Origin: a virus
Lineage: Duplodnaviria > Heunggongvirae > Uroviricota > Caudoviricetes
IMG/VR virus record: IMGVR_UViG_3300020045_006153
Span: 289,234 to 353,233 of that record
Length of the DNA stretch: 64,000 bases
Direction: 5' to 3' (one strand)
The notes under the pieces were generated by a model, which searched no databases, had not been told where the DNA came from, and was given only the letters and a program-made list of their open reading frames with translations. Numbering within the stretch: position 1 is the first letter of the stretch; every line of letters starts with the position of its first letter. Below are positions 34,920 to 52,673 of this stretch, piece by piece. Both the position numbers and the translations under genes were made by a program.

Positions 34920-35510
34920 GTTACGTGTGCCCTGTTAGTGTGTATGCATGTATTATAACAGCGCATCGCTACGCTGTCAAGCAGTAACCCTACGCACTAC
35001 TACACTACTGGCACAGCAAACACAGTGCCCACATAGTTCTCGTAGTCGCAGGATGTCAATGACTATTTCAAAAACACTGCAAAGAATCCGCCTTCGCACA
35101 GCAGCCACAATGTAATTGCCTGGGCAATTAGGGTTATGCCAATCTCGCGTCCTTGGTTAATCACAATGCCCAGGCTCAGCGTCATCAGGAACAGGAGCGT
35201 AATTTGAGGCCACATAATGTTCTTCCTTTGTTAGTGTGTATGCATGTATTATAGCACAGTTGTTTAGGCTGTGCTATACTTTACATAAAAGATTTCTTGT
35301 ACAAGTCCCACATGTACACTGCAAACGCTCCCGAGGCATCGCGCAACCGCACTACCTTATTCCGGGCATAACAATGGTAGAAGCAATCACGGTAAAGTTT
35401 ACCATGCGCAACTTCCCCATCTGTGTCAACAAACCTATACGAAACTGGGGACATGTTGCTCTTCCTTGTTACTGTGTATGCATGTATTATAACATGCAGT
35501 TAACACATTG

Positions 35511-35666
35511 TCAACTGTTATCTGGCCACCAGTTTGGGTGTTTTGTTTTGTTGTATCCGCGGTTGTACAGTGCCCACTTCTCGGAAAACTCCGGGTAAGG
35601 ATTTGAGTTGTCCTTACCTTTGTGTGCGTCAATACAGCCTTGCTCGTATGGGTTTGTTGTGTGCAT
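35511..35666 (-). CDS. Rmf/CrpP-like peptide, leaderless (not in ORF track)
   Basis: MHTTNPYEQGCIDAHKGKDNSNPYPEFSEKWALYNRGY...; ATG 6 nt after TATAAT. Confidence 0.5.
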   Translation of the reverse strand: MHTTNPYEQGCIDAHKGKDNSNPYPEFSEKWALYNRGYNKTKHPNWWPDNS

Positions 35667-35714
35667 ATATGTATTATAGCACAGGTGTTTATGCTGTGCT
35701 ATAACTTTACAAAA

Positions 35715-35945
35715 CTATTTCAAACCCAACTTTACAGCGGCTGCAACTGCTTCTGGGGGCAAGGGGATGCCGCTTGCTTTTGCAGCGTCGTAGGCTGCTT
35801 GTAATGCTTGCATTTGCGCATTGCTAACACGCACAGTAGCCTGCGGACCGCGGTCCTTCTCAACTTTATTTTGCAGCGCATACAAGCTATTTTGCTGGCG
35901 CTTGTTGAGATTGGACAAAACTGCTGTTTGGAGTGGAGTGTTCAT
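35715..35945 (-). CDS. Early hypothetical protein
   Basis: Promoter + AAAGGA RBS; start MNTPLQ. Confidence 0.6.
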   Translation of the reverse strand: MNTPLQTAVLSNLNKRQQNSLYALQNKVEKDRGPQATVRVSNAQMQALQAAYDAAKASGIPLPPEAVAAAVKLGLK

Positions 35946-36035
35946 TTCGTTTCCTTTGTTTGTTGCGTATGCATGTATTATACAACGCAGGCGGGGAAAG
36001 GGCAAGCGTTATTTGCTATGCCCTTTCACTTTACT

Positions 36036-36350
36036 TTACCAGCGGCTACCGTTCATTGCGTTTGCAACCACGCTCTTCACCGCTGCCTCAAACGCATCGC
36101 CCTCAAACAGCTTGTCCTCGTCCAAGTTATCCTGTACAATGTTGGTAAAGTCGTAGTTGTCAATCCAACGTTCCAAGTCGCTATCAATGTCCGGACCCGT
36201 TGCAGCGTTTTCTTCCAAGTCCAGGATACGCGCTTGCATTTCCACAATCTGCGTTTCGTAGCGCTCTTCCACTACCTTCACCGCCGCTGCAACCATTTGC
36301 GTAATCGTTGCGTTCAGCGTTGCTTGGAACAGTGCAGTAAAGTCAGTCAT
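36036..36350 (-). CDS. Early acidic hypothetical protein
   Basis: Own promoter and RBS. Confidence 0.65.
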   Translation of the reverse strand: MTDFTALFQATLNATITQMVAAAVKVVEERYETQIVEMQARILDLEENAATGPDIDSDLERWIDNYDFTNIVQDNLDEDKLFEGDAFEAAVKSVVANAMNGSRW

Positions 36351-36389
36351 TTCGTTTTCCTTGTGTGTTGCTATGCATGTATTATAACG

Positions 36390-36599
36390 TTAAACAGTTG
36401 CCTTGTCAAGCATTTTCAGCCCCCACGTGCCATCATTATTGTTGTTGCGCAGGACCTTTGCATGTGCCCGGGCAGTGCAATCCGTTGCCTCAACTTCAAG
36501 CAGTTCTGCCATTTCCACCATGTACTCTGGCCAGTACACAGCAGGGTCACATACAATAATGTGAGTGGGGAAAACAATGGTGTTGTGTTTAATTTGCAT
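36390..36599 (-). CDS. Early hypothetical protein (leaderless)
   Basis: ATG 6 nt after TATAAT. Confidence 0.5.
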   Translation of the reverse strand: MQIKHNTIVFPTHIIVCDPAVYWPEYMVEMAELLEVEATDCTARAHAKVLRNNNNDGTWGLKMLDKATV

Positions 36600-36616
36600 G
36601 TGTGTATTATAACACC

Positions 36617-36796
36617 TTACAGCACAGCGGAAGGCATCTTTACAAGAATATTATTAAATGCGCCAAGCGGAATTGCCTGCGCGGTACCGTACAAGTCCCC
36701 TTCAGCGTGCCGCAAGGCGCGGGCGAGGATCTTCCACTCCTCCAGCGTAAAGTGTGCATATGCTGCTTGTGTCTTTTGCAGTTCAGTCAGTTCCAT
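36617..36796 (-). CDS. Early hypothetical protein (59 aa, not in track)
   Basis: MELTELQKTQ.. behind promoter and AAGGA. Confidence 0.5.
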   Translation of the reverse strand: MELTELQKTQAAYAHFTLEEWKILARALRHAEGDLYGTAQAIPLGAFNNILVKMPSAVL

Positions 36797-37176
36797 TGCG
36801 CGTCCTTGTTAGTGTGTATGCATGTATTATAGCATACATGCAGGAATTGTCAACCTTTATTTCACAACTGTTGGATCTTCCGTGCCACAATCCGTGCAGC
36901 AATCAACACCTGCAGCAAGGGTTCTGCAACCGCCTTAGCGCGGTTTTTAGAGGGCGCGGATACAACTACCTTATGTTGTTCTCCCGTCGCTGTGCGGGCT
37001 TCTACAATGTATGTGTGCATTTATTCCCAGTAAACAAAACGTTTTGTAATATTCTTGTAAGCAAAATAACTTACAATAAGCGGGCTAAAAAGTACGAGCA
37101 GTTTAAGTATGTCCATGCATGTATTATAACGTTATTTGGACAAACGGGCAAGCGTTATTTGCATTGCCCTTTCACT

Positions 37177-37419
37177 TTACTCAACTACATGCAGTCGCGT
37201 TTCCAACACGTCCTTGCCGCCACGCGCATCGTAGTGTGTGCTTGTGTGCACTGTCACCTGCATGCCTGCTGCTTCCAGTGCAGCCTTTATAACAGCATAG
37301 TCCTCTTCCTTCCAGCGCCACACTTTAATGCTGCGTGCGCCGTCCTTCAGTTTGTCGTTAAAAATAGTCGGATGTGTGCCGGCCAGTTTGCGTACAATCT
37401 GCATTACGTTTGTTGCCAT
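37177..37419 (-). CDS. Early hypothetical protein
   Basis: Own promoter/RBS; FNDKLKDGARSIKVW. Confidence 0.65.
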   Translation of the reverse strand: MATNVMQIVRKLAGTHPTIFNDKLKDGARSIKVWRWKEEDYAVIKAALEAAGMQVTVHTSTHYDARGGKDVLETRLHVVE

Positions 37420-37503
37420 TTGCGTGTCCTTGTTGCTGTGTATGCATGTATTATAACATGCATTGTAAAGTGCACAAATAATACTTGTGCACTTTACATA
37501 TCT

Positions 37504-37737
37504 TTACAAAAGCACTGTTGCAGCATACGCCTCGTAAGCGTCCTCGTCGCAGTCAATCACTGCAAGCACTTTGCCAGTTTGTGCAGTAATCGTAACCATG
37601 TCGTCTTCGTCGCGCTCGTAGTAGCCCAGCAGCGTGTCATCCACAAAAACTTCGCCACTGTCCTGCTCGCCGTTAAAACTCAGCGTCTTGCCATTTGCAG
37701 TGTAAACTACGCCGCTGTCTGTGTAAAGTACTTGCAT
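37504..37737 (-). CDS. Early acidic hypothetical protein
   Basis: Own promoter/RBS. Confidence 0.6.
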   Translation of the reverse strand: MQVLYTDSGVVYTANGKTLSFNGEQDSGEVFVDDTLLGYYERDEDDMVTITAQTGKVLAVIDCDEDAYEAYAATVLL

Positions 37738-37824
37738 TTTGTGTTCCTTGTTACTGTGTATGTATGTATTATACTGCCCAAAAGCAAAGTACGCAAGTGT
37801 TATTTGCGTACTTTACAAAGTATT

Positions 37825-38088
37825 TTAGTTAAACACAAAGCCCAAGCGCTCTGCTTCTTGCGTTACAGCAGCAAGTGTAACAAAATCGTCTTGCACCCAG
37901 TCTGCGTCCAGCAGTGCGCAAACACAGTCCTCTTCGCGCTCTGCTTGCTCCAGTTCCATAAAGCGCACATCCGTGTGCTCGTTGCGCAGCAGCACAGCAG
38001 TACGTCCCTTGCTGTTAGCGTAACGCACGTTAATCACGCCGTTCAAAGTGCTAACGCCCACGAATTTGTAAGTTGCTGTGTTTGCCAT
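37825..38088 (-). CDS. Early protein, 'GVSTLNG..VRYAN' family copy 1
   Basis: Similar to 44459 and 50394 ORFs. Confidence 0.7.
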   Translation of the reverse strand: MANTATYKFVGVSTLNGVINVRYANSKGRTAVLLRNEHTDVRFMELEQAEREEDCVCALLDADWVQDDFVTLAAVTQEAERLGFVFN

Positions 38089-38194
38089 TTTGTGTTCCTT
38101 TTGTTTGCTACTGCATTATTGCAGCGCATGTATGTATTATATACTCAAAAGCGTAAAGCGCAAGTGTTATTTTGCGCTTTACATATCTTTACAT

Positions 38195-38473
38195 TTAAGC
38201 AATGTCCGCAATGCAGCGCAAGTATTGTCCGCTGCCCGTCAATTTCACAGTGTTGCTGTAACCCAACGCATTAAAATCATTCTGCACTTGTTCCAACACA
38301 CTGCTTGCCCGCAGCATGTTAATCGTGTATACTACACTGCGCCGTGCAGGAACTTTCTTCGCCGTCTTCTCCGTGTAACTGCCCACCTTGCAGCCGTATG
38401 CATACTCTGCTGCTCCGTGTGCAGCAATCGCCTGCTTCATAACTTTGCGCACTTGCATTGTGTTTGCTTGCAT
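38195..38473 (-). CDS. Early hypothetical protein
   Basis: AAAGGAG RBS; start MQANTMQ. Confidence 0.6.
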   Translation of the reverse strand: MQANTMQVRKVMKQAIAAHGAAEYAYGCKVGSYTEKTAKKVPARRSVVYTINMLRASSVLEQVQNDFNALGYSNTVKLTGSGQYLRCIADIA

Positions 38474-38548
38474 ACTATCTCCTTTGTTTAACATGTATGT
38501 ATTATAACAGGATTTGCAAAGTGTGCAAGATATTTTGCACACTTTACA

Positions 38549-39142
38549 TTATACAAGCACTTGTTGCAAAGCCGCCACACGCACAATATTTTCCAACTTT
38601 ACAGTACGCACACAAATCGTATGCGTCACGTCATTCTTTTTATTGTACACTGTGTTGTCTTTTTGCAACATCTTTGCTGCCGCGCCCTTTGTGCAGTATG
38701 CAGCAACTTCTTCTTCTGTTACAATTTCGTTGTCTTTTACATACACACTCTTCGCACTATTATAGTGCAAATACATGTATTCCTGTCCGCTCACTTTGTT
38801 GCGTACAATTGTATAGCAGTCAGCGTCGTGTGTAAAGCTAGCTTCGCTTGCCTCAAACTCTGCTACATTCGTTTCGTCGTTGCCGTCAACCTTTTTTGCA
38901 CTGCGTTGCACAGCCGCCACATAGTTCAGCCTGTTTGCAAACATCAGCACGCTCGCCCGTGTCACTTTTTGTATCAGCACGTCTTTGTGCGCAGCAGCAA
39001 GCGCCACCTTTGTCACCTGCGTCACGTTCGCAATCGTTGCCGTGTTGTTGTAATCGCGCAACAGTGCAGTCACTCGCTGTGCAGTTACTTTGTTTTGTTT
39101 TTGTGCAGCAATAGCAGCGCGGGCGTAAGCAAGTGTAAGCAT
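38549..39142 (-). CDS. Early hypothetical protein (197 aa, no proline)
   Basis: Own promoter/RBS. Confidence 0.7.
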   Translation of the reverse strand: MLTLAYARAAIAAQKQNKVTAQRVTALLRDYNNTATIANVTQVTKVALAAAHKDVLIQKVTRASVLMFANRLNYVAAVQRSAKKVDGNDETNVAEFEASEASFTHDADCYTIVRNKVSGQEYMYLHYNSAKSVYVKDNEIVTEEEVAAYCTKGAAAKMLQKDNTVYNKKNDVTHTICVRTVKLENIVRVAALQQVLV

Positions 39143-39228
39143 TTTGTATCCTTTTTGTACGCTGCATTATTGCAGCGCATGTATGTATTATACGGCCGTT
39201 TGAAGGGGCTGTGCAACTATTTTGCCTG

Positions 39229-39350
39229 CTTTACATATCTTTACAATTGGGCTTTATATAGCACATTTTTGAGGTCCTGTCAAGCATCTTTACACAACTT
39301 TACATTCGTTGTTTTTCCGCCACAAGACCCCAACTTTACATAACTTTACA
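39229..39350 (-). promoter_or_regulatory. Three tandem TGTAAAG-N3-TGTAAAG boxes, one 16-bp palindrome, extra promoter
   Basis: CTTTACA-N3-CTTTACA at 39229, 39288, 39334. Confidence 0.6.
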
Positions 39351-39360
39351 ATCGCCTCCA

Positions 39361-39376
39361 AAGCCCTTTCGGGCTG
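39361..39376 (-). terminator. GAAA-tetraloop hairpin terminator
   Basis: AGCCC-GAAA-GGGCTTT on minus strand; similar at ~42150-42178 and ~44434-44447. Confidence 0.6.
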
Positions 39377-39381
39377 CTGGG

Positions 39382-40185
39382 TTATACTTTGTTCCAGTTG
39401 TTCTTCACGTAAGTTCGTGCTAGTGTACGCGTCATGCCCAACGTAAAAACTGCAGATGCAATCACAAGTTCCTCACTCCAGCCATTGCTCTTTGCTGCAC
39501 TAATCAACGCACGTACTTTGTCAGCATTGGTGCCGCCCGTTGTAGGTGCTTTGTACACGGGTTGCACAGTAAACACAGAGGGCTTTGGTGCTACAAACTG
39601 CGCTGCTGGCTTTGCAGCAGGTTTTGCTGCACTTGCAAGCATATGAGCCTGTGTACGTGTATATGGACTGTCCTTGCTAATGCGTCCTTTGCCCTGTGCA
39701 ATACGTACACTGCCACGTTGAATCTTGTTGTGGATGTTAGCGCTCACTGCAATAATGTGGCCGGTGCTAGTAGTGTATGCGTAGGGCTTGGCATGGGCTA
39801 CTGCTTCGGGCGCATCTTCCTGGCGGTAGCAGCGCTCACCATTGCCACCAAGTGCACGGCACACTCGCTTCCAACCTGGGTTGTGCTGGCGACCATACTG
39901 TGGATGCGATTGGCATACGGTATGAGCAACTTCGTGTGGCACCGTGTCATTCAGCAAGTGGTCCCAAGACTGACCACCCAATTGCATATGATGGATGTTA
40001 AACCTGAGGTAATAACCCTTATGCAGCGGGGTCGTATGTTGGAAGTTATACCCGGCCATTCCGGCAGCACGACCTGTCAAGTCAAAGCGCACATCAATTG
40101 TTGGCATCTTGATACCGAACGTAGACTCTGCTAGTGCAACACATGCTGCAACTTTGTCTTTAATTGCTTGGATCTTTGCTTGCAT
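39382..40185 (-). CDS. SprT-like zinc metalloprotease
   Basis: GRAAG.A; TVPHEVAH; HNPGWKRVC. Confidence 0.85.
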   Translation of the reverse strand: MQAKIQAIKDKVAACVALAESTFGIKMPTIDVRFDLTGRAAGMAGYNFQHTTPLHKGYYLRFNIHHMQLGGQSWDHLLNDTVPHEVAHTVCQSHPQYGRQHNPGWKRVCRALGGNGERCYRQEDAPEAVAHAKPYAYTTSTGHIIAVSANIHNKIQRGSVRIAQGKGRISKDSPYTRTQAHMLASAAKPAAKPAAQFVAPKPSVFTVQPVYKAPTTGGTNADKVRALISAAKSNGWSEELVIASAVFTLGMTRTLARTYVKNNWNKV

Positions 40186-40584
40186 TTCGTTTCCTTTGTT
40201 TGCTGCGTATGTATGTATTATACTCTCAGCCTAACAGTATGTCAACAACTAATTAACCAAAAGGTCTACGACCTAGCAATGTATCAATACCCACAAGGAT
40301 ACAGAACCAAATGTAATGAAAGATCAGACCGTCTGTTATCCAATACGCAACGAGCAAACACAGCAGCAACATAGCGCCGCACCCCAGCAAGAATAGTGTC
40401 ATGTCAACCCCTAACGTACAAACTTACCAAACAAACTGCAACAAACGCTCCCACCACAATGTGCGCTATAATGTTTCGCATTACTTGCCCAGCAAGGGTT
40501 GATCGTTTACAATGCACCACACTGATCGTGCAATTACTACACCGATAGCAAACAAACACAAGTGGTACACTAGATATGAAGTGA

Positions 40585-40812
40585 TCATACTTTTTCCTTA
40601 AACACTGGTTCGTTCCAGTATAGCGTTATTGCAAAAACTCCTGTGGCCAATACAATGAGTGCGTTTACGCCCGGGATCATTGATATGATCGTACGGCTTA
40701 TCAAGTATCCCCACGTAAGCATTGCCGGCCATGCTTTTGCTTCTCTGTAGTATATCAGTCCGCACAGCAACACGCTAATGATATAACCGACGATGAGCAT
40801 TTCTACTAGCAT
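40585..40812 (-). CDS. Small membrane protein
   Basis: Two hydrophobic segments; one of several tiny hydrophobic ORFs at 40.2-41.1 kb. Confidence 0.5.
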   Translation of the reverse strand: MLVEMLIVGYIISVLLCGLIYYREAKAWPAMLTWGYLISRTIISMIPGVNALIVLATGVFAITLYWNEPVFKEKV

Positions 40813-41092
40813 GGGAGTCCTTTTGATTTGCGGTAAATGAACACTTCTAACTTCACAATGCCGTACACAAAAATCAGTGTCATCGTTGTAAAGAAGTAAG
40901 GAGCAAGTTGTTGTATTGTGTGCATGTATGTATTATACTCTCACTTAGGATAATTTGCAACCAATCCTACGATCAATCCTACCAAACACACCCAGAATGC
41001 AAATCGACCCGACAGTGTGTTGTCTTTAAACAACACCCCCACTGCTAGTGCATTGATTGTTATCAATAGCACAGAAAAGAAATGTGGGCCCA

Positions 41093-41290
41093 TTAAATCG
41101 TATCCATTTCTTGTGCCATATCATACATCTTGGGGTCCATACGACGCATGCCGTCTTCCCACTTGTCAGTGCAAATGAATTTGTCAGTGTGGTGATCCCA
41201 TTGACGATCTAAATTCGAAGATATAAAATATCGAATATCCTCGATCTCTTCGTTAGTCAGGATGATCTCGAGGTCGTTCAATCTGCGCAT
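41093..41290 (-). CDS. Hypothetical protein
   Basis: Start MRRLNDL. Confidence 0.5.
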   Translation of the reverse strand: MRRLNDLEIILTNEEIEDIRYFISSNLDRQWDHHTDKFICTDKWEDGMRRMDPKMYDMAQEMDTI

Positions 41291-41518
41291 ATTAGCCCCA
41301 TTGAAAAAATGATTTCTTGTGTGGAGTTGCACCGTGCTCACGTGCTATCCAGATAGTATAGCAAGGAACGATATTGATGCAGTATCGTTTGTTATATTCG
41401 CTGTAGTGCACACCTAGCCACCATGCACCTGCTTGAAACACAATACCACATTTCATTTCGTTTCCTTTGTTTGCTGCGTATGTATGTATTATAACAGGGA
41501 CTTATCTCCCTGTCAACA

Positions 41519-41848
41519 CTATTCAGCCCAATAAAATCCCACAGTCTTGTCTTCATTGCACAGCCTGCGAATGCGCGCCTGTTCAGACTTGTGTTGATTG
41601 CTGGTAGCAAGTCGGCCATTGAAGCGGTCCGCTGCTGCTGCTGTGATGCTGCTGTACCGCTTGCCATATGCCACAACAGGCTTGCGATACGGACGCTTTT
41701 CGTTATCCAGGAGCACTGCTTGCTCAACTTCTTCACGTGTCACTGTGCCTGCTGTAAGGCCGATGAACAGTGCAGTGCGGCCTGCTTGACAAGTAAGCGG
41801 CAGTGCAGTATAATCGACCTTTTTAACTGCTTTGATACGTGCGTTCAT
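41519..41848 (-). CDS. Hypothetical protein with NUMOD1-like motif
   Basis: KPVVAYGKRYSSITAAA. Confidence 0.55.
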   Translation of the reverse strand: MNARIKAVKKVDYTALPLTCQAGRTALFIGLTAGTVTREEVEQAVLLDNEKRPYRKPVVAYGKRYSSITAAAADRFNGRLATSNQHKSEQARIRRLCNEDKTVGFYWAE

Positions 41849-41905
41849 ATGTGTCCTTTTGTTCCTTGTGTGTATTGTAACGCAAATATAACTCTGCGTC
41901 AATCA

Positions 41906-42088
41906 TTATTTGCTGAAAGGGAACTTGCCGGTCATGACGTATGCTGTAAATTCTTCAGCCTTCATGTATGCGATGTGCACTCCCTTCATCTCCATGCTTA
42001 TGAGTTCTTCTGCCTGAGTTGTGGCCTCGGTAGAAGTGTCCCAGGAGCCGAAACAGTCATACCTGTCAAACACATACCATATTCCCAT
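41906..42088 (-). CDS. Early hypothetical protein
   Basis: Own promoter/RBS. Confidence 0.55.
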   Translation of the reverse strand: MGIWYVFDRYDCFGSWDTSTEATTQAEELISMEMKGVHIAYMKAEEFTAYVMTGKFPFSK

Positions 42089-42179
42089 TTCGTTTCCCTT
42101 TGTTTGTTGCATGTATGTATTATACTCTCAATCTCAGGCACTGTCAACAAAAAAGAGCCCTTTCGGGCCCTCTTTTTAC

Positions 42180-43097
42180 TTAGTTAGTAAGCACATACGT
42201 AGCCAACTGCTTCCAGTTGCCGCCTGCTGCCCGCAACTTTGTAACCGCTTGCAGTGTGCGCAAGGACAACTCCTTAACGCTGTTTTGCTGCTCTTTGATC
42301 AAGTCCATTGCGTCCTGCTTGTGCTTTTGCGCAGCGGACGGCATAAAACTAACGCTTGCAACCATATGCTCCATGCGCTCAATCTTTTGCTCTGCAGTCA
42401 TCTTCAAGTCCACACAGTACGCCCGGGTAAGTAGTGCACCTGCAATTTGATTGCGTTGCATGTTGCTAATAAAAATGACGCGTCCGTGGAACACAAAACT
42501 ACGCGGCAAGTCGTCGTCCTTCATGTCCGCGTTCCAGCTAATAACGCGCTTGTCGTAACTGTCCAGCGCGCCCTTCAGCAAGTTGAGTGCAGTAGCGTCC
42601 TTCAGCACGTCATCGCAGTCGTCAAACACAAGCACGCCGTCCTTGTTCATAAACAACTCGCGGTACAGTCCTTTTGCAGTACTGTAACCCTTAATCATTT
42701 TGTAACTGTGCGCGGGCTTTTCTTCGTCTGCTTCAATTCCGCTAGCATCCACGAGCCCGTGTGCAGCAAGTGCTTCCTGTACAGTATGCGTCTTACCCAG
42801 CCCGCCTGGCCCTGTAATAACAACGCTGTTCGCTTTGTTTTCAGCAACCATGCCCACCAGCTGCGTCACGAAGCCAAAACGCTCCATAATAGGCCATTGT
42901 GCGTCAACGTCGTCTGCGGATCCTGCAATGCCGTCTTCAGTCATGCCCACTTCGTCGCTACCCAAGTCCTCGACATTCTTGTGTCCAGCCTTTTCCATCA
43001 TCTTCACAACACGAGTCTTGTCGTAGGACTTAACAACTTTGCGTCCCATGTACATGCCAACCCAATTGCCGTCTGCGTAAATAATCTTTGCTTGCAT
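42180..43097 (-). CDS. AAA+ ATPase
   Basis: GPGGLGKT Walker A; VLVFDDCD Walker B; VIFISN; ALLTR. Confidence 0.85.
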   Translation of the reverse strand: MQAKIIYADGNWVGMYMGRKVVKSYDKTRVVKMMEKAGHKNVEDLGSDEVGMTEDGIAGSADDVDAQWPIMERFGFVTQLVGMVAENKANSVVITGPGGLGKTHTVQEALAAHGLVDASGIEADEEKPAHSYKMIKGYSTAKGLYRELFMNKDGVLVFDDCDDVLKDATALNLLKGALDSYDKRVISWNADMKDDDLPRSFVFHGRVIFISNMQRNQIAGALLTRAYCVDLKMTAEQKIERMEHMVASVSFMPSAAQKHKQDAMDLIKEQQNSVKELSLRTLQAVTKLRAAGGNWKQLATYVLTN

Positions 43098-43537
43098 GCT
43101 ACGTATCCTTCTGTTGTTTGCTATGTGTCTATTATACTGCTATTTGTGAGAGTGAGCAATCTCTTTGTGAGGTACTTGACCTCACTGTAGGGTTATTATT
43201 TGATAATGTTGAATGCAATCAGACCCAGCACAAATGCTGAGATCAGCGGAATGATCTTGAATACAACTGCTGAGGCAAAGTTCGTTGTATTCAGTACAGA
43301 GCCCATAACAACGAGATATGCAGCGATAACGAGTTGTGCAATTTGAACGTTTTCCATTTGTATTCCTTTGTTGCTATGTATGTATTATAACCCCAATCTC
43401 GCATGTTGTCAATAACATATTCTCTATAGGGTTATTATTCGAGCAAGCACCCTCTACGTCCATCCCCCTTTGTTCGACATACTTATTATAGTCTCATAAG
43501 AGAAAGTGTGCAAGCAATGCCCGCACACTCTGTAGGG

Positions 43538-43864
43538 TTAATACGTAATTGGCACGTTAATGTTGATGCCTTGCGCAGACAGTTTGCACACAATGCCTTC
43601 GTCTTCCCATTCGGCGATGCATTTTTTAAACAATGGTTCGTCTCCTACAAATCCGCCTTCTACTTTAACAGTAATCATTGTCTTACGGGCACTGTTAAAG
43701 ACACGTGCGTTAGGATTCAATGTAGACACCACTGCTTGAATTGCGCGTGACTTGATCTCTACATGCTCGGGGAAGTTGCTTCGATTTGCGATATCGGTCA
43801 TACGTGCGTTAGCAAACGCTCCGTATTTCTTACGGCCAGCATCTTTTGTTTCGATATACTTCAT
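43538..43864 (-). CDS. Early hypothetical protein
   Basis: Own promoter/RBS. Confidence 0.6.
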   Translation of the reverse strand: MKYIETKDAGRKKYGAFANARMTDIANRSNFPEHVEIKSRAIQAVVSTLNPNARVFNSARKTMITVKVEGGFVGDEPLFKKCIAEWEDEGIVCKLSAQGININVPITY

Positions 43865-43921
43865 ACATACTCCTTTGTTGCTATGCTTGTATTATAAGGC
43901 TAGTTTAGTTGCTTGTCAACC

Positions 43922-44143
43922 TTATTCGGGGATAAGTTTCGTGCCTTCCCAGATGTAAATCTCGCCCAGGTTGGTATGCATAGTTGCACCGGCTGTGGTT
44001 CTGAATGCATTGACCGCTGTTGGCATGCCGACTGCTTTATATCGGTAGAACTCGCCTGAGATGTCTTTAATCATTTGTTGTGCAACGAAGTTGTTAACCT
44101 TCATTATCATTTGGCCGGTGCTGTCGCGAATGATGTATGTCAT
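43922..44143 (-). CDS. Early hypothetical protein
   Basis: Own promoter/RBS. Confidence 0.6.
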   Translation of the reverse strand: MTYIIRDSTGQMIMKVNNFVAQQMIKDISGEFYRYKAVGMPTAVNAFRTTAGATMHTNLGEIYIWEGTKLIPE

Positions 44144-44330
44144 CTTGTGTTCCTTTGTTGCTTGTATGTATTATACTCTCACAATGCAGGAGTGTCAACA
44201 ACTATTTAAATCCACCCTGTTAATTCAGGCTATGCATCCTTACCAGATGCCAACGCTGCGACACGTTTCGAGTTAGTTCCCGTATTGTAAGCCCTCGTCG
44301 CAAAAGGCCTGTGGATTCAAATAGCAGTTG

Positions 44331-44434
44331 TTTGTTTAGATAGAAGGCGTTAACATAGCTTCCTCTTGAGGCTTAGTTACTGCATTCACACGCTGAGCCT
44401 TGTACTCAGTTGTAACGCCTTCTATCTAAACAAA
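44331..44434 (-). ncRNA. Putative structured RNA closed by a perfect 22-bp stem
   Basis: TTTGTTTAGATAGAAGGCGTTA / TAACGCCTTCTATCTAAACAAA enclosing two small hairpins. Confidence 0.5.
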
Positions 44435-44458
44435 GCCCTTTCGGGCCCTGCTTATTGC

Positions 44459-44716
44459 TTACGCAATTTCCAGTTCCAGCCGCTCAAACTCACGGCCCAC
44501 TGCAAACGCATTGTGGATGTCCTCTTGCACAAAGTCTTCCTTGGACAGTGCTTCCACAGCGCCCACTTCGTCCAGCGCAACGGGCAGTTCAACAAAGCGG
44601 ATCGCAGTGTGGCCGTTACGCTCCAGCACACGAGCACGACCCTTTTCGTTAGTGTAGCGCACAGCAATCTTGCCGTTCAGGGTGGACAGGCCGACGAATT
44701 TGAAAGTGTTGTTCAT
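44459..44716 (-). CDS. Early protein, 'GVSTLNG..VRYAN' family copy 2
   Basis: Paralog of 37825 and 50394. Confidence 0.7.
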   Translation of the reverse strand: MNNTFKFVGLSTLNGKIAVRYTNEKGRARVLERNGHTAIRFVELPVALDEVGAVEALSKEDFVQEDIHNAFAVGREFERLELEIA

Positions 44717-44815
44717 TTTAAATTTCCTTTAAAGTGTGTTGCTAAGTATGTATTATAACGTCTAACTAACTATCTTGCAAGTCTTTTTTGCTTGCTATTT
44801 CCAATTTCTTTTTGT

Positions 44816-44938
44816 TTACCAGAACTTGCTGATGAAGTGCACTGCTACATAAATTGCAGTGCCGGCAAATGCCGCTGCTGCTACAAACGAAAGCACAATC
44901 ATCAATTCAATTAGTGTGAAACCTTTTTGCTTTTTCAT
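44816..44938 (-). CDS. 40-aa prepilin-type peptide (not in ORF track)
   Basis: MKKQKGFTLIELMIVLSFVAAAAFAGTAIYVAVHFISKFW; AAGGAG RBS and own promoter. Confidence 0.8.
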   Translation of the reverse strand: MKKQKGFTLIELMIVLSFVAAAAFAGTAIYVAVHFISKFW

Positions 44939-44999
44939 CTCTAACTCCTTTGTTGCTATGTATGTATTATAACGCAGTTTTTACACTGCGTCAACCTTT

Positions 45000-45239
45000 T
45001 TATGCCAACAACGTAATGTTGTCTGTGCTCAGTTGTGTACGTGCAATCACCATTGCCGCTTCCACTGCTGCTTCCTTCACTTCGTCGGAAGCGTCGCTGT
45101 CGCACAAGTCGCCGCTCACGTAAGCACTGTTCAACACGCTTACGCGCTTGGATGCAATGTCGAACGTTACAAGCAAACGCAAAGTCCCCAGGCGTGTGTT
45201 TTTAACTACTTTGGCTACTGCTTGGCAATGTGTTTGCAT
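45000..45239 (-). CDS. Early hypothetical protein
   Basis: Own promoter/RBS. Confidence 0.6.
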   Translation of the reverse strand: MQTHCQAVAKVVKNTRLGTLRLLVTFDIASKRVSVLNSAYVSGDLCDSDASDEVKEAAVEAAMVIARTQLSTDNITLLA

Positions 45240-45444
45240 GTGTGTTCCTTTGTTGCTATGTATGTATTATAAGGCCAATTTAATAGCCTGTCAACTGTTT
45301 TTACTCAATAACGCTTGCTGCTGCACCAGCAATCAATCCCACGCCAACGACCAGCAAACCGTGAAAGTTGTTACCGGTAAGGCCTGCTGTTGCTATAGCA
45401 GTAATAGCGACGCCGATCAGGTAGATATGAAATAGTTTCATAGA

Positions 45445-45642
45445 TTATCCGTACATTGTTTCAAAGTCGAATGCAGTGCTGCCGTAGTCCCAGCGCTCGT
45501 CATCCCAATCGTCGCCCCATGCTTCGATGCATTCTTCGACTAGCGACACAGGCACTTTTAGGTCCAGGGCGATCATGTGTGGAGCCATACCTCGCTTGTA
45601 CAAGTCTTCGATCTCGCCGTATACTTTGCTCATCATGCTCAT
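45445..45642 (-). CDS. HTH-like small protein
   Basis: GMAPHMIALDLKVPVSLVEE. Confidence 0.55.
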   Translation of the reverse strand: MSMMSKVYGEIEDLYKRGMAPHMIALDLKVPVSLVEECIEAWGDDWDDERWDYGSTAFDFETMYG

Positions 45643-46032
45643 CGTATTCTCCTTGTTGCGATATATGTATTATACTGTTGATCGACATTGCTGTCAAGCG
45701 AAAGGGGAAATTAATCCCCTTTCATTCTCTAACTATTCTCTAAACTAATTATAAGTTTAAATTATTGCATTATTGCCTCACCTCACGAAAGGCTTATATA
45801 GTATCTTATGGTTCATTTAACAAACAGCAAAGTATTGTTACTTGCTGCTACCTATTGCCAACTTAAGCAAAATACTTCTTGAACCAGGTTGGAACAACTT
45901 TCATCTCCTTAGTAACTGCAAAAATACGTGCTTTGTTTTTACGAGCGGACATTTTGTTTTCCTTTACTGTGTTGCTATGTATGTATTATAACGCTAAACT
46001 ATCTGCTTGTCAACTTCTTTTTGCTGCCTACT

Positions 46033-46230
46033 TCAAAAACTTTTTCGATGCCACTTGTAAAGCCGTTCAGCCTCTTCACCTTTGTTGTTGTCTTTTGCGG
46101 CCTGCATCAACCCGCGGATGTTTGTTGCTTCGGCGCGACCAGCAGTGTAGTACTTGTAATCATCGCTCATCTGGTAGTACCAGTCATGGGCAATTAGGGC
46201 TGCTTCTAGTTCTTTGAGTGTGGTTTCCAT
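46033..46230 (-). CDS. Early hypothetical protein
   Basis: HDWYYQMSDD. Confidence 0.6.
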   Translation of the reverse strand: METTLKELEAALIAHDWYYQMSDDYKYYTAGRAEATNIRGLMQAAKDNNKGEEAERLYKWHRKSF

Positions 46231-46284
46231 TATATTCCGTACTGTGCTGCTATGCATGTATTATAAGGCCTTTCGGCCTTATTG

Positions 46285-46611
46285 TCAATCCATTCTGCTG
46301 CCCGCGTAAAACTTTACACCCAATTTCTCAGTCAGCACCTTGGCTGCTGCCCGTGCACCTTCTTCCAGTGCAGTTATGCTCTGAGTATAAGACTTGCTGG
46401 GATTCCACAGTTGGTAGCCGCCGCCATATGACTTGCTGAAGCCGTGCTTCTTTAATTCGCGAACCAAACGACTAGTACCTTTTTCATGTGTAGTAATCCA
46501 GGCAAAGCCACAGCAATCGCGATCGCCGTGTTGTTGCAGCCATTGTGCAGTTGCAGTAGATGCGGCTTGCATTGCTTCTGCTACGACTGCTTGGACGTTG
46601 ACTTCGGACAT
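46285..46611 (-). CDS. Early hypothetical protein
   Basis: DCCGFAW motif; own promoter/RBS. Confidence 0.7.
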   Translation of the reverse strand: MSEVNVQAVVAEAMQAASTATAQWLQQHGDRDCCGFAWITTHEKGTSRLVRELKKHGFSKSYGGGYQLWNPSKSYTQSITALEEGARAAAKVLTEKLGVKFYAGSRMD

Positions 46612-46955
46612 ATAAACTCCTATTGCGTTGTGTATGTATGTATTATAAGGCCAAAGTGCAGGCCTGTCAACAGATTTGTACGTGTTTCATCAAACAAAGT
46701 TCCGCATTGCTTGATACATAAAGCCTCCAAGCATAGCAATGCAGGCTATTGCAAACATGATACCGAAGATTGCAATCAATATGCCCAGGATATCCATTAA
46801 GAAGTCGACCATATCAACCCGCCAAAAGAATAAGACATGCAACAATCACAGCAGCAACGGGCATGTGACAAAGGGCAAGCACAATAACGGCAATCCAGGG
46901 CATAGCGTTTCCTTTTAGTTTCATAAATGTATTATACTCTCAGAACGCGGTATTG

Positions 46956-47125
46956 TCAAGCCGCTTTGCGAAAGTAACTGTAAGGAATGCCGTGTTCCCA
47001 AGCATAGTAGTCCCAGTCGCCACTGCACTCGCTAGCCTGCATCAGCCAACGCAGCGCGTCTGTGCGTGTCTTAGCACCACTTGCAATAGTGCTAGCCACT
47101 AAGGCTTCGAATCGCTCAATGGCCC
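46956..47125 (-). pseudogene. Headless C-terminal gene remnant
   Basis: AIERFEALV..GA..R..ALRW..GIPYSYF frame without its own start or RBS. Confidence 0.45.
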
Positions 47126-47277
47126 GTTTCGGCTTCTTTTTCGACGAATTCGATGTTGTCGATATCTTCGCCCGTTTCGGGCCGCAGGCTTGTCCAGATA
47201 GCGTCAGCAACCCATTTGCGGGGATGTGATGCTTCGTCGTCCAAGATCAGGTCAAAGGATACGCGGTATGTCTTCAT
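47116..47277 (-). CDS. Hypothetical protein (53 aa, not in track)
   Basis: MKTYRVSFDL..HPRKWVADAI; AAGGA RBS. Confidence 0.55.
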   Translation of the reverse strand: MKTYRVSFDLILDDEASHPRKWVADAIWTSLRPETGEDIDNIEFVEKEAETGH

Positions 47278-47279
47278 TT

Positions 47280-47525
47280 TTAGTCCTTATTCAGTTCTGC
47301 GGCAATGTAAAGGTATTCCTCTTCCTTACTGACCATGCTCAAGTCAGTAACAGCGTCAACCCATCCTTCGAGTATATCAACACGATCAATGCCCTCTAGC
47401 GTCGAACGAACGAGCGACCTTGCATCAGTTTCGTCGTATGCTTCTACAATCATCTTCACATCAACTTCAAAGTGTGCCATTTCAGTATGCTCCGTAGGAT
47501 GCGTCAAGTTGCAGTTCAAGTCCAT
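47280..47525 (-). CDS. Early acidic hypothetical protein
   Basis: Own promoter/RBS. Confidence 0.55.
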   Translation of the reverse strand: MDLNCNLTHPTEHTEMAHFEVDVKMIVEAYDETDARSLVRSTLEGIDRVDILEGWVDAVTDLSMVSKEEEYLYIAAELNKD

Positions 47526-47582
47526 ATATGTTCCTTTGTTACTTGTATGTATTATAACAAGGAACACAAGATCGGTCAACTA

Positions 47583-47894
47583 CTATTTCAATTTACTTTC
47601 GTCAAACTGACCAAACGTAATCACAGCACGTTCAATCTTCATCTTACCCGACTTGAAGTAAGCAACCCACATGTCGCTATTCTCTTCGCCTGTGCCGCCG
47701 AGTGTAAACAGTGTGCCCGGATGTGCAGTGGACACTGTCTTCATGTGATCTTTCCAGTCGTACCACTTTACTTCGTTAAGTGTAAACGCGGTGTCCCACC
47801 CATATCCTGTGATATCGCGCAGTTCTTCAACAAGAACTTCGTCGTCGATAGCATCGTTGTCGTGCTCCATGCTGAATGTTGTGTAATATCCCAT
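47583..47894 (-). CDS. Hypothetical protein
   Basis: MGYYT..KWYDW..GTGEE. Confidence 0.65.
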   Translation of the reverse strand: MGYYTTFSMEHDNDAIDDEVLVEELRDITGYGWDTAFTLNEVKWYDWKDHMKTVSTAHPGTLFTLGGTGEENSDMWVAYFKSGKMKIERAVITFGQFDESKLK

Positions 47895-48080
47895 TGTAGT
47901 TCCTTAAGAAGGGTTAACTGTTAGTTTTCAGAATGTTTGCAGCCAATTGCAGGTATTGCAAATAGGTTAATTCTTTTGCGCCTGCTGCTTGGCAACGCAC
48001 ACAGTGGCGGAAGTATTCGAATTGAAAAGACATTTGTATTCCTTTAGTTGTATGTATTATACTCTCAACTTACACTGCTG

Positions 48081-48275
48081 TCAAGCGTTATTGCGCAAAT
48101 CTTCAATGTCCACTGCAATCTCCATAGCCAACTCGTCCAGTTCAGTCATGTACATATCGCTTACATCTGTGCCGCCAAGTGCAGCCTGAATCAGCATACG
48201 GGCTTCCTCGATCTTCCGCTGCGCTTCTTGCAAAAGTGGAATCTTTGTTGCTTGAACTACTGCGACATCTTGCAT
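48081..48275 (-). CDS. Early hypothetical protein
   Basis: Own promoter/RBS. Confidence 0.6.
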   Translation of the reverse strand: MQDVAVVQATKIPLLQEAQRKIEEARMLIQAALGGTDVSDMYMTELDELAMEIAVDIEDLRNNA

Positions 48276-48527
48276 TTTGTTTCCTTGTTTGCTTGCTATG
48301 CTTGTATTATAGCATCACTTTGAGGGAACGTATACCTTTATTTGTACACAGATTGCGGAATATCCGCGCTCTACTGCTCTCGTACCTTGCATACGTTGGC
48401 AAGACTCGTAATCTGCGACCGGAGGCGAGTATGAAATTTGGTTGCTATTGTAGCCGCCAACTGACATCAAAACCCAAACTAAAACTGTTTGCATAGTGTT
48501 CCTTAGTGTGCTTGTATTATAGCACCG

Positions 48528-48725
48528 TTATTCTGCAAAGTCAACGTATCCGTCAATAAAACTATCCGACATGTAGCCGTCTTCCATTGCCTGCAACAGC
48601 GTATCGCCATTGCAAATCAGCCGGCCACCTCCACAGTTATTCATGATGTATGCAGCATACTCGTCATCGAGATCGCCTGAGTCGAACGCTTCTTCAACTT
48701 CTTCGCGTGTTGCTTGATTGCGCAT
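48528..48725 (-). CDS. Early acidic hypothetical protein
   Basis: Own promoter/RBS. Confidence 0.6.
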   Translation of the reverse strand: MRNQATREEVEEAFDSGDLDDEYAAYIMNNCGGGRLICNGDTLLQAMEDGYMSDSFIDGYVDFAE

Positions 48726-48798
48726 TGTGTATTCCTTGTTGCTATGCTTGTATTATAACGCAGAAAGGAACTGCTGTCAAACAATTCCCTAACTTATT

Positions 48799-49026
48799 TT
48801 AGTATTTCGGAATAGGACGGGGATCCATCCTCATAATCGATTCGCACACTTCCTTCGCTTCCTTCAAGCCAATCTTGTACTGATTGCGGATGAACTTGAT
48901 TGCGATCAACCTCGTGCTGAATGCGTTATCAACAGATCCTGCCAACATCAAGGAGCGCACGACGTCGAACTCAGCGTCTGTTACGTTGTGTGTCTCGTAC
49001 TTCACTGCATATTTGATCGTTTGCAT
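48799..49026 (-). CDS. Small protein with ribosomal L7/L12 C-terminal-like motif
   Basis: IAIKFIRNQYKIGLKEAKEVCE. Confidence 0.55.
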   Translation of the reverse strand: MQTIKYAVKYETHNVTDAEFDVVRSLMLAGSVDNAFSTRLIAIKFIRNQYKIGLKEAKEVCESIMRMDPRPIPKY

Positions 49027-49262
49027 GTATGTTCCTTTGTTTGCTGCGTTGTATGTATTATAACAGCGTATCGCTACACTGTCAATAGATTAGTTGCAAA
49101 GAGTTTGTAAAATACGTCCACGGTCTGTACCACACTGGGGGCTTGTAACCAAAATACATTGCGTCATTGCGCGCCTCTTCCAGCGTCTTGTTGTATACTG
49201 TTAATGTGGTGGTGATGTTGCTTTTGCCCCACCACATAACGATTCTTGGATAGCGTCTCATA

Positions 49263-49574
49263 TTAAATTTCCTTCCAGCCGCTGCTCATGCACAGCCACT
49301 GTTCTTCACCCACAACCACCACGTCGCCTACGCTAAGGCTACGAGCACGTCCGTACTTCTCTTCGCGCTCGTCCTGGCGATAAGGGTTGTTAGTAAGGTC
49401 AAACGCTTCTTCGGCTGCATCCATGCTGTCGCCGTTTGCTTCAAACAGTGCAGACTCAGTGTACAGTCCTGCTTTCATTGCAGCACGGATTGCTTCAATT
49501 GCTTTGTCTTCTTCCAGGAAGTACAGTGTACCCATCATCGAGGAAGGAGCAAGTTTGAGTTTAATCGTTGCCAT
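49263..49574 (-). CDS. YodL-like protein
   Basis: RSLSVGDVVVV..GW. Confidence 0.55.
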   Translation of the reverse strand: MATIKLKLAPSSMMGTLYFLEEDKAIEAIRAAMKAGLYTESALFEANGDSMDAAEEAFDLTNNPYRQDEREEKYGRARSLSVGDVVVVGEEQWLCMSSGWKEI

Positions 49575-49733
49575 TTCGTGTTCCTTTGTTTGCTGCGTTG
49601 TATGTATTATAAGGCCGTTTGAGAGAGAATGCAATACTTTTTTGAAATGTTACACTTTGTTACATCTGCGTGAGATCGTGAGAAAGCCCGCGCACTTCAC
49701 AGCGGGCGGGCTTACTAAATCAACTTGACTTAA

Positions 49734-50003
49734 TTAAACTAGGCCAAGTGCCATTGCTTTGTAGCCAGCAGCCACGATCTCACGGCTTGGAGTACCTAGT
49801 ACATACTCGCTTACCTGTACGCCGTTGCCTGCCTTGCGATTCTTCAAATACACTGCGTAACCACTGTGGCGGATGCGACTAACTTCAGCACGGATGTTCA
49901 TGATACCAAACCGCTTTGCAGCCTGTGATTGGGTAACACGGTCACCTTGTTGTAGTGCTGTGAACAGTTTGTATGTCTTTGTTTCTGGGCTAATCTTCTT
50001 CAT
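49734..50003 (-). CDS. Winged-HTH DNA-binding protein
   Basis: VTQSQAAKRFGIMNIRAEVSRIR..GY.V. Confidence 0.7.
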   Translation of the reverse strand: MKKISPETKTYKLFTALQQGDRVTQSQAAKRFGIMNIRAEVSRIRHSGYAVYLKNRKAGNGVQVSEYVLGTPSREIVAAGYKAMALGLV

Positions 50004-50092
50004 ATATTGTTTTCCTTATTGTGTACTGCTTAACAGTTAAAACTATTGTAGCAAATACACAACAGGTAAATCAATATATTATTTTGCCAAAC

Positions 50093-50305
50093 TTAGCTCT
50101 TTGAGGAAGTAGACTTGAACAACAGGCCAAACAGCACAAGGATACCCCAGGCCTGAAGCCAAGTAATTTCATGCACGCCGTCGACTAGTCCAACCAAGCA
50201 CCCATTCCACAGCCAATAGACTGGCAAACTCATCAGCAAGCCAAACCCAACGATAAGAGCAACAATGCCGAGAATGCCGAGAATAATTGTAGAGATAGCG
50301 TTCAT
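50093..50305 (-). CDS. Small membrane protein
   Basis: WLWN..ITWLQAWG hydrophobic. Confidence 0.6.
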   Translation of the reverse strand: MNAISTIILGILGIVALIVGFGLLMSLPVYWLWNGCLVGLVDGVHEITWLQAWGILVLFGLLFKSTSSKS

Positions 50306-50393
50306 GTGTGATCCTTTTGTGTGTTTATGTATATGCCCGTACAGTTGTGTGCAGTGCTATGCAGCGGGGTACTGGTATAGCACTGCGCTTGTA

Positions 50394-50807
50394 TTAGAAC
50401 GGTGCGTCTTCGAGTGCAGCGTTTACTACGGCATCTTCGTCCTTAGCAACCTTGGCTGCATTGACCTTGGCTTTGATGCCTTCGATAGTGGGCTTTGCTT
50501 TTGCAACCTTAGCAGGCTTCTCAGCCTTCACTTTAGGCTCTTTAGCAGGCTTCACTGCACGGGCTTCCACTGCTTCTTCCAGTGCAGCCTCAACATCGGC
50601 ATTCATAACGCCGTCGACCATTGCAAAGTCGATGCTGATCAAATGTGCAATCGCATCTTCCTTCTCCATTGCGGAGGGCAGTTCGATGATGTTAATGTCA
50701 GTGTGGCCGTTCTTTGCCAGCACCTTAACGCGGATAGCGTCATTTGCAAAGCGAACCTTAACGATACCGTTGAGAGTGGAAACGCCAGCGTGTGTAAAAG
50801 TAGTCAT
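50394..50807 (-). CDS. 'GVSTLNG..VRFAN' family copy 3 with Lys/Ala/Pro-rich tail
   Basis: Paralog of 37825 and 44459; KPAKEPKVKAEKPAK tail. Confidence 0.7.
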   Translation of the reverse strand: MTTFTHAGVSTLNGIVKVRFANDAIRVKVLAKNGHTDINIIELPSAMEKEDAIAHLISIDFAMVDGVMNADVEAALEEAVEARAVKPAKEPKVKAEKPAKVAKAKPTIEGIKAKVNAAKVAKDEDAVVNAALEDAPF

Positions 50808-50918
50808 TTTAAATATCCTTTTCTGTGTGTGTAAAGTGTTATAAACTAGCACTGTTGCTTGTTTATGTATTAATTATAGCGTCAACTGGTAATGTCGTCA
50901 ACCGTTTTGTTGTTGTAA

Positions 50919-51332
50919 TTAAACAACAGCAACATGTAAAGCAGATTCCAGCGTTACTGCTTTGTTTCCGTATGTATAGTATTGCCACACGCCGTTCGTG
51001 TCCATGACATATACATGTTCCCAGTTGCTTAATGCTTCAGCAACTGAGTTGTAAGTAGCAAACGGGCTGCATTCATCGCGATCTCGTCCGTAGAAGCGAC
51101 ACTGAACAGCAACACCATCTTCAAAAACAATCGGATCATTGAAACTGACCTTGTTGCCAATTTCCTTGCCCAACACAGAACAATCGCCCATGGCCACGAG
51201 ATTGTTTGCTTTGGTACTGTTGTAATGCTCGAGTAGCACCTTGCCGGTGTAGCGCAAGTAACCGTCGGAGTGTACGTAGATTGCTTTGAACTTAGTTCCG
51301 TGCATTACGCCTACTAGTGCATGTGTGCTCAT
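50919..51332 (-). CDS. Early hypothetical protein
   Basis: IYVHSDGY..G..L..HY; FYGRDR. Confidence 0.7.
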   Translation of the reverse strand: MSTHALVGVMHGTKFKAIYVHSDGYLRYTGKVLLEHYNSTKANNLVAMGDCSVLGKEIGNKVSFNDPIVFEDGVAVQCRFYGRDRDECSPFATYNSVAEALSNWEHVYVMDTNGVWQYYTYGNKAVTLESALHVAVV

Positions 51333-51377
51333 TGTGTGTTCCTTGTTACTGTGTATGCTTGTATTATACAACGGCAA

Positions 51378-51578
51378 TTAGCCGTTGTCAACCATTTCCA
51401 GCAAACGATCGTAGTGTTCTAAGAACTCTTGTGCAGTCTGTGCCATGCGCTTCATAGCGGACAGTTCGTATGTGGACAAGTCCATTTCCTTCAGCGTCTC
51501 GGCTTCTTCCATTGCGCTAACGCAATCTTGCAAGTCACTGGAAGTGTTCTCAAAACGGCAGTAAGACATATTGCTCAT
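51378..51578 (-). CDS. Early hypothetical protein
   Basis: MSYCRFENT..DL.DC. Confidence 0.7.
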   Translation of the reverse strand: MSNMSYCRFENTSSDLQDCVSAMEEAETLKEMDLSTYELSAMKRMAQTAQEFLEHYDRLLEMVDNG

Positions 51579-51638
51579 TGTGTGCTCCTGTTTAACATGT
51601 ATGTATTATAACAGCCTTTTTATAGGGTGTCAACAACT

Positions 51639-52211: not shown

Positions 52212-52267
52212 CTCTGTTCCCGTGTTGTTAAAGTATGTATGTATTATAACTGCACTTTGCCAAACTG

Positions 52268-52471: not shown

Positions 52472-52673
52472 CGCATACTCCTTGCTGTGAAGTATGTATT
52501 ATACTATCGACTGAAGATAGTGTCAAGATCTTTCTTCACTTCAAACTCGCCGCGCTCCGTCATACCTTGCAACGTGATCTCGATCAATGATTCGCTAATT
52601 TCGTTAACCGTTCGCATAACATCATCCATATTGAATGTATAATACACGATGTATTGTTTATCTTCGTCCGGAT

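Follow-up and report, generated by a model that had tools for sequence, protein, structure and literature searches.

The final 64 kb of the genome of an uncultured phage of the class Caudoviricetes (IMG/VR record IMGVR_UViG_3300020045_006153, positions 289,234 to 353,233) contain a block of five consecutive early transcription units that have almost no TC and CC on the sense strand, and hence almost no GA and GG on the template. This 64-kb stretch is referred to as the window, and positions are given in its numbering unless a genome or locus label is added. The genome, labelled G000:C1, is a single contig of 353,233 bp with a completeness estimate of 99%. The ban is maintained by selection via recoding, and most relatives of the largest gene of the block have lost the same dinucleotides from both strands. 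The genome also encodes enzymes of deazaguanine synthesis and a putative DNA transglycosylase, and we suggest, close to but just short of an even chance, that the purged cassettes are written to escape a guanine modification made by the phage itself.

The plus strand between 37151 and 39180 (2030 nucleotides, nt) contains exactly 5 GA and 6 GG, with observed-to-expected ratios (rho) of 0.06 and 0.08. G itself is abundant as GC (206, rho 1.94) and GT (185, rho 1.43), and the same strand carries 119 TC and 91 CC, so that the bias is one-sided. The mRNA of the block is GA-rich (119 in 2 kb), and the GA-poor strand is the template. Two runs are completely free of GA and GG, one of 681 nt (37382-38061) and one of 592 nt (38530-39120). 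An earlier note on this DNA, based on a hand count, had given approximately 5 GA and 6 GG, free runs at 37383-38061 and 38531-39120, and plentiful TC and CC on the plus strand, and the exact counts bear it out. Among 1-kb windows across the whole genome, none outside the block has a GA+GG or TC+CC count of 25 or less.

The five units belong to a long array of co-oriented promoters. From the promoter at 39192 to position 37129 their sense strands contain 2/3, 1/1, 1/0, 0/0 and 2/5 TC/CC, respectively, whereas rho for TC/CC is about 0.5–0.9 in the remaining approximately 45 units. As only five units are fully purged, the array serves as an internal control; the other minus-strand genes are not depleted to the same extent, and equal depletion there is what the earlier note had named as evidence against its claim. 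The spacer of the first promoter retains TC and CC (CCCC, TTC), and the purge sets in approximately at the −10 element or start site. At the other end, CC and TC first return in the 3’ arm of a terminator-like hairpin (37135..37165).

Downstream of the block the ban continues in a partial form, and thus there are two tiers. The core loses TCN and CCN, while the flank (34958-37128) loses only TCA, TCG and TCT (HGA on the template), which are present at 0.15–0.23 of expectation, compared with 0.93 for TCC and 0.6–1.1 for CCN. Calculated by unit between 37128 and 34958, rho is 0.23–0.47 for TC and near normal for CC. Two more distant units are also depleted, 43136-42125 (TC 0.32, CC 0.41) and 45271-44972 (TC 0.23, CC 0.36). 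The weaker depletions earlier placed at approximately 36.0–36.4, 42.2–43.1 and 45.0–45.2 kb are therefore real by per-unit counts.

The coding sequences were compared with a codon-aware null, in which the five proteins were fixed and codons were drawn from 33 other early genes (2000 draws). The expected number of TC/CC was 86.5 ± 8.3 (minimum 58), and 8 were observed; hence the depletion persists under the amino-acid-preserving shuffle that the earlier note had proposed. It is seen in all three codon positions, the codon junction included. All 21 Ser codons of the block are AGY, against 82 of 160 in the reference genes, and Pro makes up 0.4% of residues against 2.7%, being absent from genes g77, g87 and g197 (open reading frames, ORFs, at 37504, 37825 and 38549). 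In g87 a single TC/CC remains, compared with 20 and 35 in its two paralogs at 44459-44716 and 50394-50807, respectively. Conserved residues encoded by TCC ACC CTG and TCC ACT CTC in the paralogs are encoded by AGC ACT TTG in g87, and the Pro of the ELP sequence found in both paralogs is replaced by Glu (ELEQ). Leu CTG is changed to TTG only after T-ending codons. The missing Pro, the AGY serines and the ELEQ substitution had all been pointed out in the earlier note, and all were found again in these comparisons.

The base composition was also considered. The sense strand of the block is T-poor (21.7%) and has 26.2% G; its C content, 19.9% against 20.7% across the array, is unchanged. The footprint of an APOBEC-like deaminase is not seen, as T is not enriched and rho is 1.25 for TT and 1.07 for CT. 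Nor does the pattern correspond to restriction-site avoidance, the ban being local and concerning a one-sided dinucleotide pair rather than a genome-wide palindrome.

Homologs of g197 were searched for in metagenomes, yielding 37 proteins with 40–67% identity, and in IMG/VR, where an alignment-based scan found 12 loci (a single-protein scan gave no matches), in total about 50 relatives. In five of these loci (L094, L095, L099, L100 and L102) the sense strand of the g197-family gene has no TC, CC, GA or GG at all over 486–594 nt, and in four others (L091, L093, L096 and L101) the four dinucleotides total 2–8. Most relatives are purged on both strands, and their proteins have almost no Asp, Glu, Gly or Pro. 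The leaders of the both-strand-purged genes have no Shine-Dalgarno sequence, so translation of the mRNAs in L094, L095, L099 and L102 must start otherwise. The respective products of approximately 200 aa (amino acids), encoded without any of the four dinucleotides at L094:3316-3927, L095:5944-6558, L099:5950-6516 and L102:5860-6525, are conserved and confidently folding. A second gene of the relatives (about 105 aa) is likewise purged of all four dinucleotides. By eye, its representative at L095:4579-4884 has the look of a small winged-helix DNA-binding protein, and it possibly reads the TGTAAAG/TGTAAC repeat pairs.

Several neighbouring genes in the relatives are free of TC and CC only, each on its own sense strand whatever its orientation (minus-strand genes occur in L095 and L102), and these single-strand purges extend from the start site to the terminator. 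Homologs of g77 with 41–43% identity are TC/CC-free as well. At the other extreme, the g197 gene of L092 is relaxed (20 TC, 18 CC, 13 GA, 7 GG). On the tree of the g197 family the relaxed members are scattered among the purged ones, and g197 of the present genome, purged on the template only, falls into a partly relaxed clade; composition may distort this tree. We rejected antisense read-through as the cause of the both-strand purge, given that most genes purged in this way are co-oriented with their neighbours. Since relatives purge both strands, selection acts on a step in the DNA, G before a purine, whether on a single strand or on both.

Modification genes provide a candidate agent. The genome encodes FolE (profile match, 9.5e-41), QueD/PTPS (6.4e-16) and QueE (phrog_2076, 5.5e-47; TIGR QueE models, ~1e-18). 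FolE and QueE lie in a cluster by polB, along with a dehydrogenase of the UDP-glucose/GDP-mannose dehydrogenase family and a 357-aa gene product of no known family; QueD is encoded 28 kb away (162943-163353), and QueC was not found in or near the cluster. The last member of the cluster, a 567-aa protein, adjoins polB and a clamp-like gene. Its structural model has a predicted local distance difference test score (pLDDT) of 89 and a predicted template modelling score (pTM) of 0.89, and in a Foldseek search its top 50 matches in the Protein Data Bank (PDB) were all tRNA-guanine transglycosylases (TGT; E 2e-6, probability 1.00). The protein has an invariant DSGGxQ block (D92, S93, G95, Q97) and an invariant D282, and its Atlas features are TGT (0.93) and DpdA (0.89). 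It was missed by PF01702, PF23859, phrog_887, phrog_7068, CAjan DpdA and NCBIfam, as well as by sequence and profile searches of the PDB, and was recognized only through its fold and its motif. Judged by these, it is a TGT-fold transglycosylase.

This putative transglycosylase has more than 7900 matches in metagenomes. Among the phage records searched, homologs were found only in PA5oct-like phages (42% identity, same synteny with QueE), Vibrio phage 2.275.O (adjoining QueF, YhhQ, QueC and FolE) and Sinorhizobium phage Phosso. DNA of PA5oct, the closest cultured carrier of the enzyme, reportedly withstands several restriction enzymes, and this was interpreted as modification of G at GA and/or GG (PMC12191111). 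In phage CAjan a single DpdA enzyme acts on two motifs, GA and GGC (PMC7544227). The base made in the present phage may be a derivative of 7-carboxy-7-deazaguanine (CDG), possibly glycosylated. It may differ from the DpdA-type base, given that no QueC was found near the cluster, whose genes include a glycosyltransferase and a UDP-sugar dehydrogenase.

The mechanism that we propose is as follows. Guanines at G-purine steps (GA in the first place, GG in the second) would be replaced by a 7-deazaguanine-type base, and the replacement would be performed by the putative DNA transglycosylase encoded beside the polymerase. In a few early cassettes the template strand would be kept free of G-purine steps; in most relatives both strands are free of them, and such a stretch would stay unmodified within a decorated genome. 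The gain might be that the host RNA polymerase, not being adapted to modified DNA, can initiate and elongate unhindered on the incoming genome; alternatively, host enzymes that attack modified bases by cutting or excision would find no target. Further, we tentatively extend this to a widespread clade of giant phages that would hypermodify G-purine steps and keep a handful of first-expressed cassettes naked, with no GA/GG on one strand or both, so that these could be read, or could survive modification-directed host nucleases, ahead of all other genes; we consider this extension somewhat more likely to be wrong than right.

Several observations agree with avoidance of a guanine modification. 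The two-tier ban resembles the action of a two-motif enzyme, such as CAjan DpdA with GA and GGC. The genome of the cultured jumbo phage PA5oct has segments of 141–217 nt free of all four dinucleotides at promoter and leader regions, and these segments share the GCAAAATAACGC loop motif with the hairpins of the block. They include tandem TTGCAA-N17-TATAAT promoters that precede the tRNA cluster, as well as the annotated ORF EST35_0386 (70 aa). In a 93% complete relative that carries the enzyme (G013), a 743-nt block of two genes has zero TC and CC. Of the hypotheses set out in the earlier note, the one invoking a modification at G-purine steps thus has the most support, from the que and TGT genes, the PA5oct report and the both-strand purge; its modification and motif are taken over by analogy.

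Other observations weigh against this explanation. Modification of the DNA at GA/GG is extrapolated from PA5oct and CAjan, and a benefit of unmodified DNA is presumed. The motif is drawn loosely for PA5oct, as ApaLI, whose site GTGCAC contains no GA or GG, also failed to cut its DNA (PMC12191111). Possession of the enzyme does not by itself bring about the trait: neither CAjan, with its proven GA/GGC modification, nor the enzyme carrier Vibrio phage 2.275.O has a purged block, and in PA5oct, also a carrier, only the short both-strand-free segments are found. About 45 unpurged neighbouring units share the −10 element with the block, 38 of them also having TTGACA, with GA in the −35 box, hence the host polymerase copes with GA and GG in templates and promoters. 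The purged unit of G013 itself uses a TTGACA −35 box.

Other genomic comparisons are listed here. The 12 IMG/VR contigs with g197 relatives are fragments (5–44% complete) in which the transglycosylase region is not covered, and ten large transglycosylase-bearing contigs contain no g197 homolog. RsoM2USA has no purged block and also no enzyme. A comparison of palindromes with and without GA, GG, TC or CC gave no general signal. AGCT is nearly absent genome-wide (57 sites, observed/expected 0.07), whereas the ratios for GATC, GGCC, CCGG and TCGA are about 1.0; AGCT occurs 1050 times in the relative G013 and 595 times in the relative G015. This loss suggests host restriction of the AluI type that is not blocked by the phage DNA chemistry, the G of AGCT preceding C.

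Rho, which was not among the four earlier hypotheses, offers a different explanation. The primary binding clefts of this factor grip 5’-YC-3’ (UC, CC) in nascent RNA (PMC12360218, PMC13323073), exactly the banned pair, and composition-based Rho avoidance with a purine bias is documented in Bacilli (PMC13323073). Transcripts without YC could not load Rho, and early messages would escape premature termination. The ban in the present genome is on the RNA-like strand, follows gene direction and runs from start site to terminator, and the sense strand lacks YC and has less C (19.9%) than G (26.2%). A weak lead comes from g197, modelled (pLDDT 91) as a small Sm/WYL-like beta-barrel with insertions. 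Its best structural neighbour according to VIA-align is the Rho inhibitor YaeO/Rof (6jie_A, Z 6.2, root-mean-square deviation 2.4 Å over 67 residues); this is within the background of the method, many Sm/Hfq/WYL barrel chains scoring Z of about 5, and Foldseek found no match for g197 in the PDB.

We nevertheless consider Rho evasion unlikely. The constraint is confined to the RNA-like strand here, but in most relatives it is not: they drop GA and GG from the mRNA too, losing the Shine-Dalgarno sequence and all Asp, Glu and Gly, which neither Rho nor an RNase acting on mRNA alone explains. The units, being monocistronic, 300–700 nt long and provided here with good ribosome sites, are poor Rho targets. 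Loading requires several spaced YC and could be prevented by thinning them out, so that a near-total purge is more than would be needed. In the flank TCC is tolerated and TCA, TCG and TCT are not, a context rule for the binding clefts that is without mention in PMC12360218 and PMC13323073. Finally, several lineages are relaxed though Rho is nearly universal.

An enzyme of host defence or of phage shut-off that cuts, deaminates or ADP-ribosylates pyrimidine-C in single strands, either the displaced non-template DNA of heavily transcribed genes or mRNA, is in our estimate similarly improbable. Enzymes preferring TC include T4 endonuclease IV on single-stranded DNA, the DddA and SsdA deaminases, and DarT at TNTC. 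A near-total purge overriding protein sequence fits a hazard in which one hit kills; the wider ban on TC than on CC, and on TCA/TCG/TCT than on TCC, is similar to the context preference of an enzyme, and the scattered relaxed lineages fit a host-specific agent. However, the genome revealed no agent of this kind, no phage defence by DNA cytosine deaminase came up in a literature search, and approximately 45 units go unprotected although they share these strong promoters. An agent acting on RNA only leaves the loss of GA and GG from the sense strand of relatives unexplained. With a DNA deaminase, the immediate fidelity of expression would depend on C in the template, yet the non-template strand is purged first.

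Neutral erosion by repeated C-to-T deamination or ultraviolet damage on the non-transcribed strand, another proposal of the earlier note, accounts for a depletion that is strand-specific and limited to transcribed DNA, but we reject it as very improbable, since C-to-T changes are excluded by a T-poor sense strand with normal C content, deamination cannot produce the TCC to AGC and CTG to TTG replacements or Pro to Glu, and the ORFs are intact and conserved, the purged state being retained at 35–67% protein identity.

The features of the block and its surroundings are listed in Table 1. The inter-gene hairpins have 11-bp stems with the AATAACAC loop, and the 3’ arm of each holds the −35 box (TTGCRC-type) of the next promoter. 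Avoidance of GA in the −35 box was dismissed as a mark of purged promoters, as hairpin symmetry accounts for it and the purged unit of G013 has TTGACA. The TGTAAAG motif is also found ahead of the promoters within the block, and relatives have comparable repeat pairs; 14 of its 43 minus-strand copies in the genome fall into one 5-kb bin here. The promoter array covers approximately 60 tiny genes in one direction, with one or two small genes per promoter, and its G+C content is 45–50%, against 30–40% in the rest of the window. An exact-pattern scan of IMG/VR for the promoter gave chance single matches only, and PHROG searches with the five block proteins gave nothing useful. The only Pro codon of g92 is among the few exceptions to the ban. 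A 506-aa antisense ORF (36754-38274, plus strand) was rejected as a gene, since without GA there can be no TGA and the ban by itself leaves such a frame open.

Table 1. Coordinates of the purged block, of associated features and of segments in the related phage PA5oct.
Feature	Position	Strand	Details
Purged block, five promoter-to-terminator units	37129..39186	-	sense strand without TC/CC, template (+) without GA/GG
Promoter P39192	39187..39216	-	TTGCAC, 18-nt spacer, TATAAT then ACATACATGC
TGTAAAG direct-repeat array upstream of block	39235..39356	-	pairs 10 bp apart; candidate operator
g197	38549..39142	-	197 aa, no Pro; sense TC=0, CC=2, GA=39, GG=20
g92	38195..38473	-	small early protein; ATG 38473, AAGGAG ribosome site
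g87	37825..38088	-	acidic, 87 aa; 1 TC/CC
g77	37504..37737	-	very acidic, 77 aa; whole unit with zero TC/CC
g80	37177..37419	-	final gene of block; 3 residual TC/CC
Inter-gene hairpin	38153..38182	-	arms GTAAAGCGCAA and TTGCGCTTTAC, loop AATAACAC; probably a terminator
Similar inter-gene hairpins	~37784-37816, 37470-37500, 38515-38540	-	
Terminator-like hairpin at purge end	37135..37165	-	GGGCAA ... TTGCCC then GTTTGT
Downstream flank	34958..37128	-	nine small units, partial ban
Early promoters of sigma-70 type	34957..57437	-	51, co-oriented, near-identical, TATAATACATRCAT; 38 with TTGACA −35
Modification cluster by polB	G000:C1:188860-197070 (L005:2862-11070)		QueE, FolE, sugar dehydrogenase, 357-aa gene, putative TGT-fold transglycosylase
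PA5oct segments free of the four dinucleotides	MK797984.1: 267253-267563, 264906-265150, 239300-239490, 277085-277227		

If the cassettes do avoid the phage's own modification, hypermodification would have a price, in expression or in exposure to defence, high enough for genes and proteins to be rewritten, and the absence of modification would single out the genes that a phage needs most urgently. The modification motif could then be read from a genome computationally, and the first-acting, probably counter-defence, genes of phages could be selected in the same manner. Whatever the agent, a total dinucleotide ban points to a strong uncharacterised interaction in infected cells. The relatives provide natural folded proteins encoded without four amino acids, and PA5oct is a cultured relative suited to testing.

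Literature searches found no published description of such islands, and three known systems are the closest for comparison. Similarly to DpdA-type systems, the present genome combines a TGT-fold transglycosylase with FolE, QueD and QueE, and the dinucleotides banned from the template are those reportedly modified by DpdA enzymes. In contrast, genes free of the motif are without mention in PMC7544227 and PMC12191111, CAjan has no block, and the enzyme found here is missed by the Pfam TGT/DpdA and PHROG models. With Rho avoidance in Bacilli the block shares a purine-rich sense strand stripped of UC and CC in a manner dependent on the direction of transcription; here, however, the ban is absolute, restricted to a few short cassettes and protein-altering, and in relatives it includes GA and GG too. 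Viruses are also known to suppress short motifs, as in the avoidance of restriction sites, which are palindromic, of CpG under ZAP, and of TC under APOBEC3, these depletions being genome-wide and partial. As in those cases, selection recodes away a short word read by some factor, whereas here the suppression is cassette-specific, near-total and direction-following, and the factor to be escaped may be an enzyme of the virus itself.

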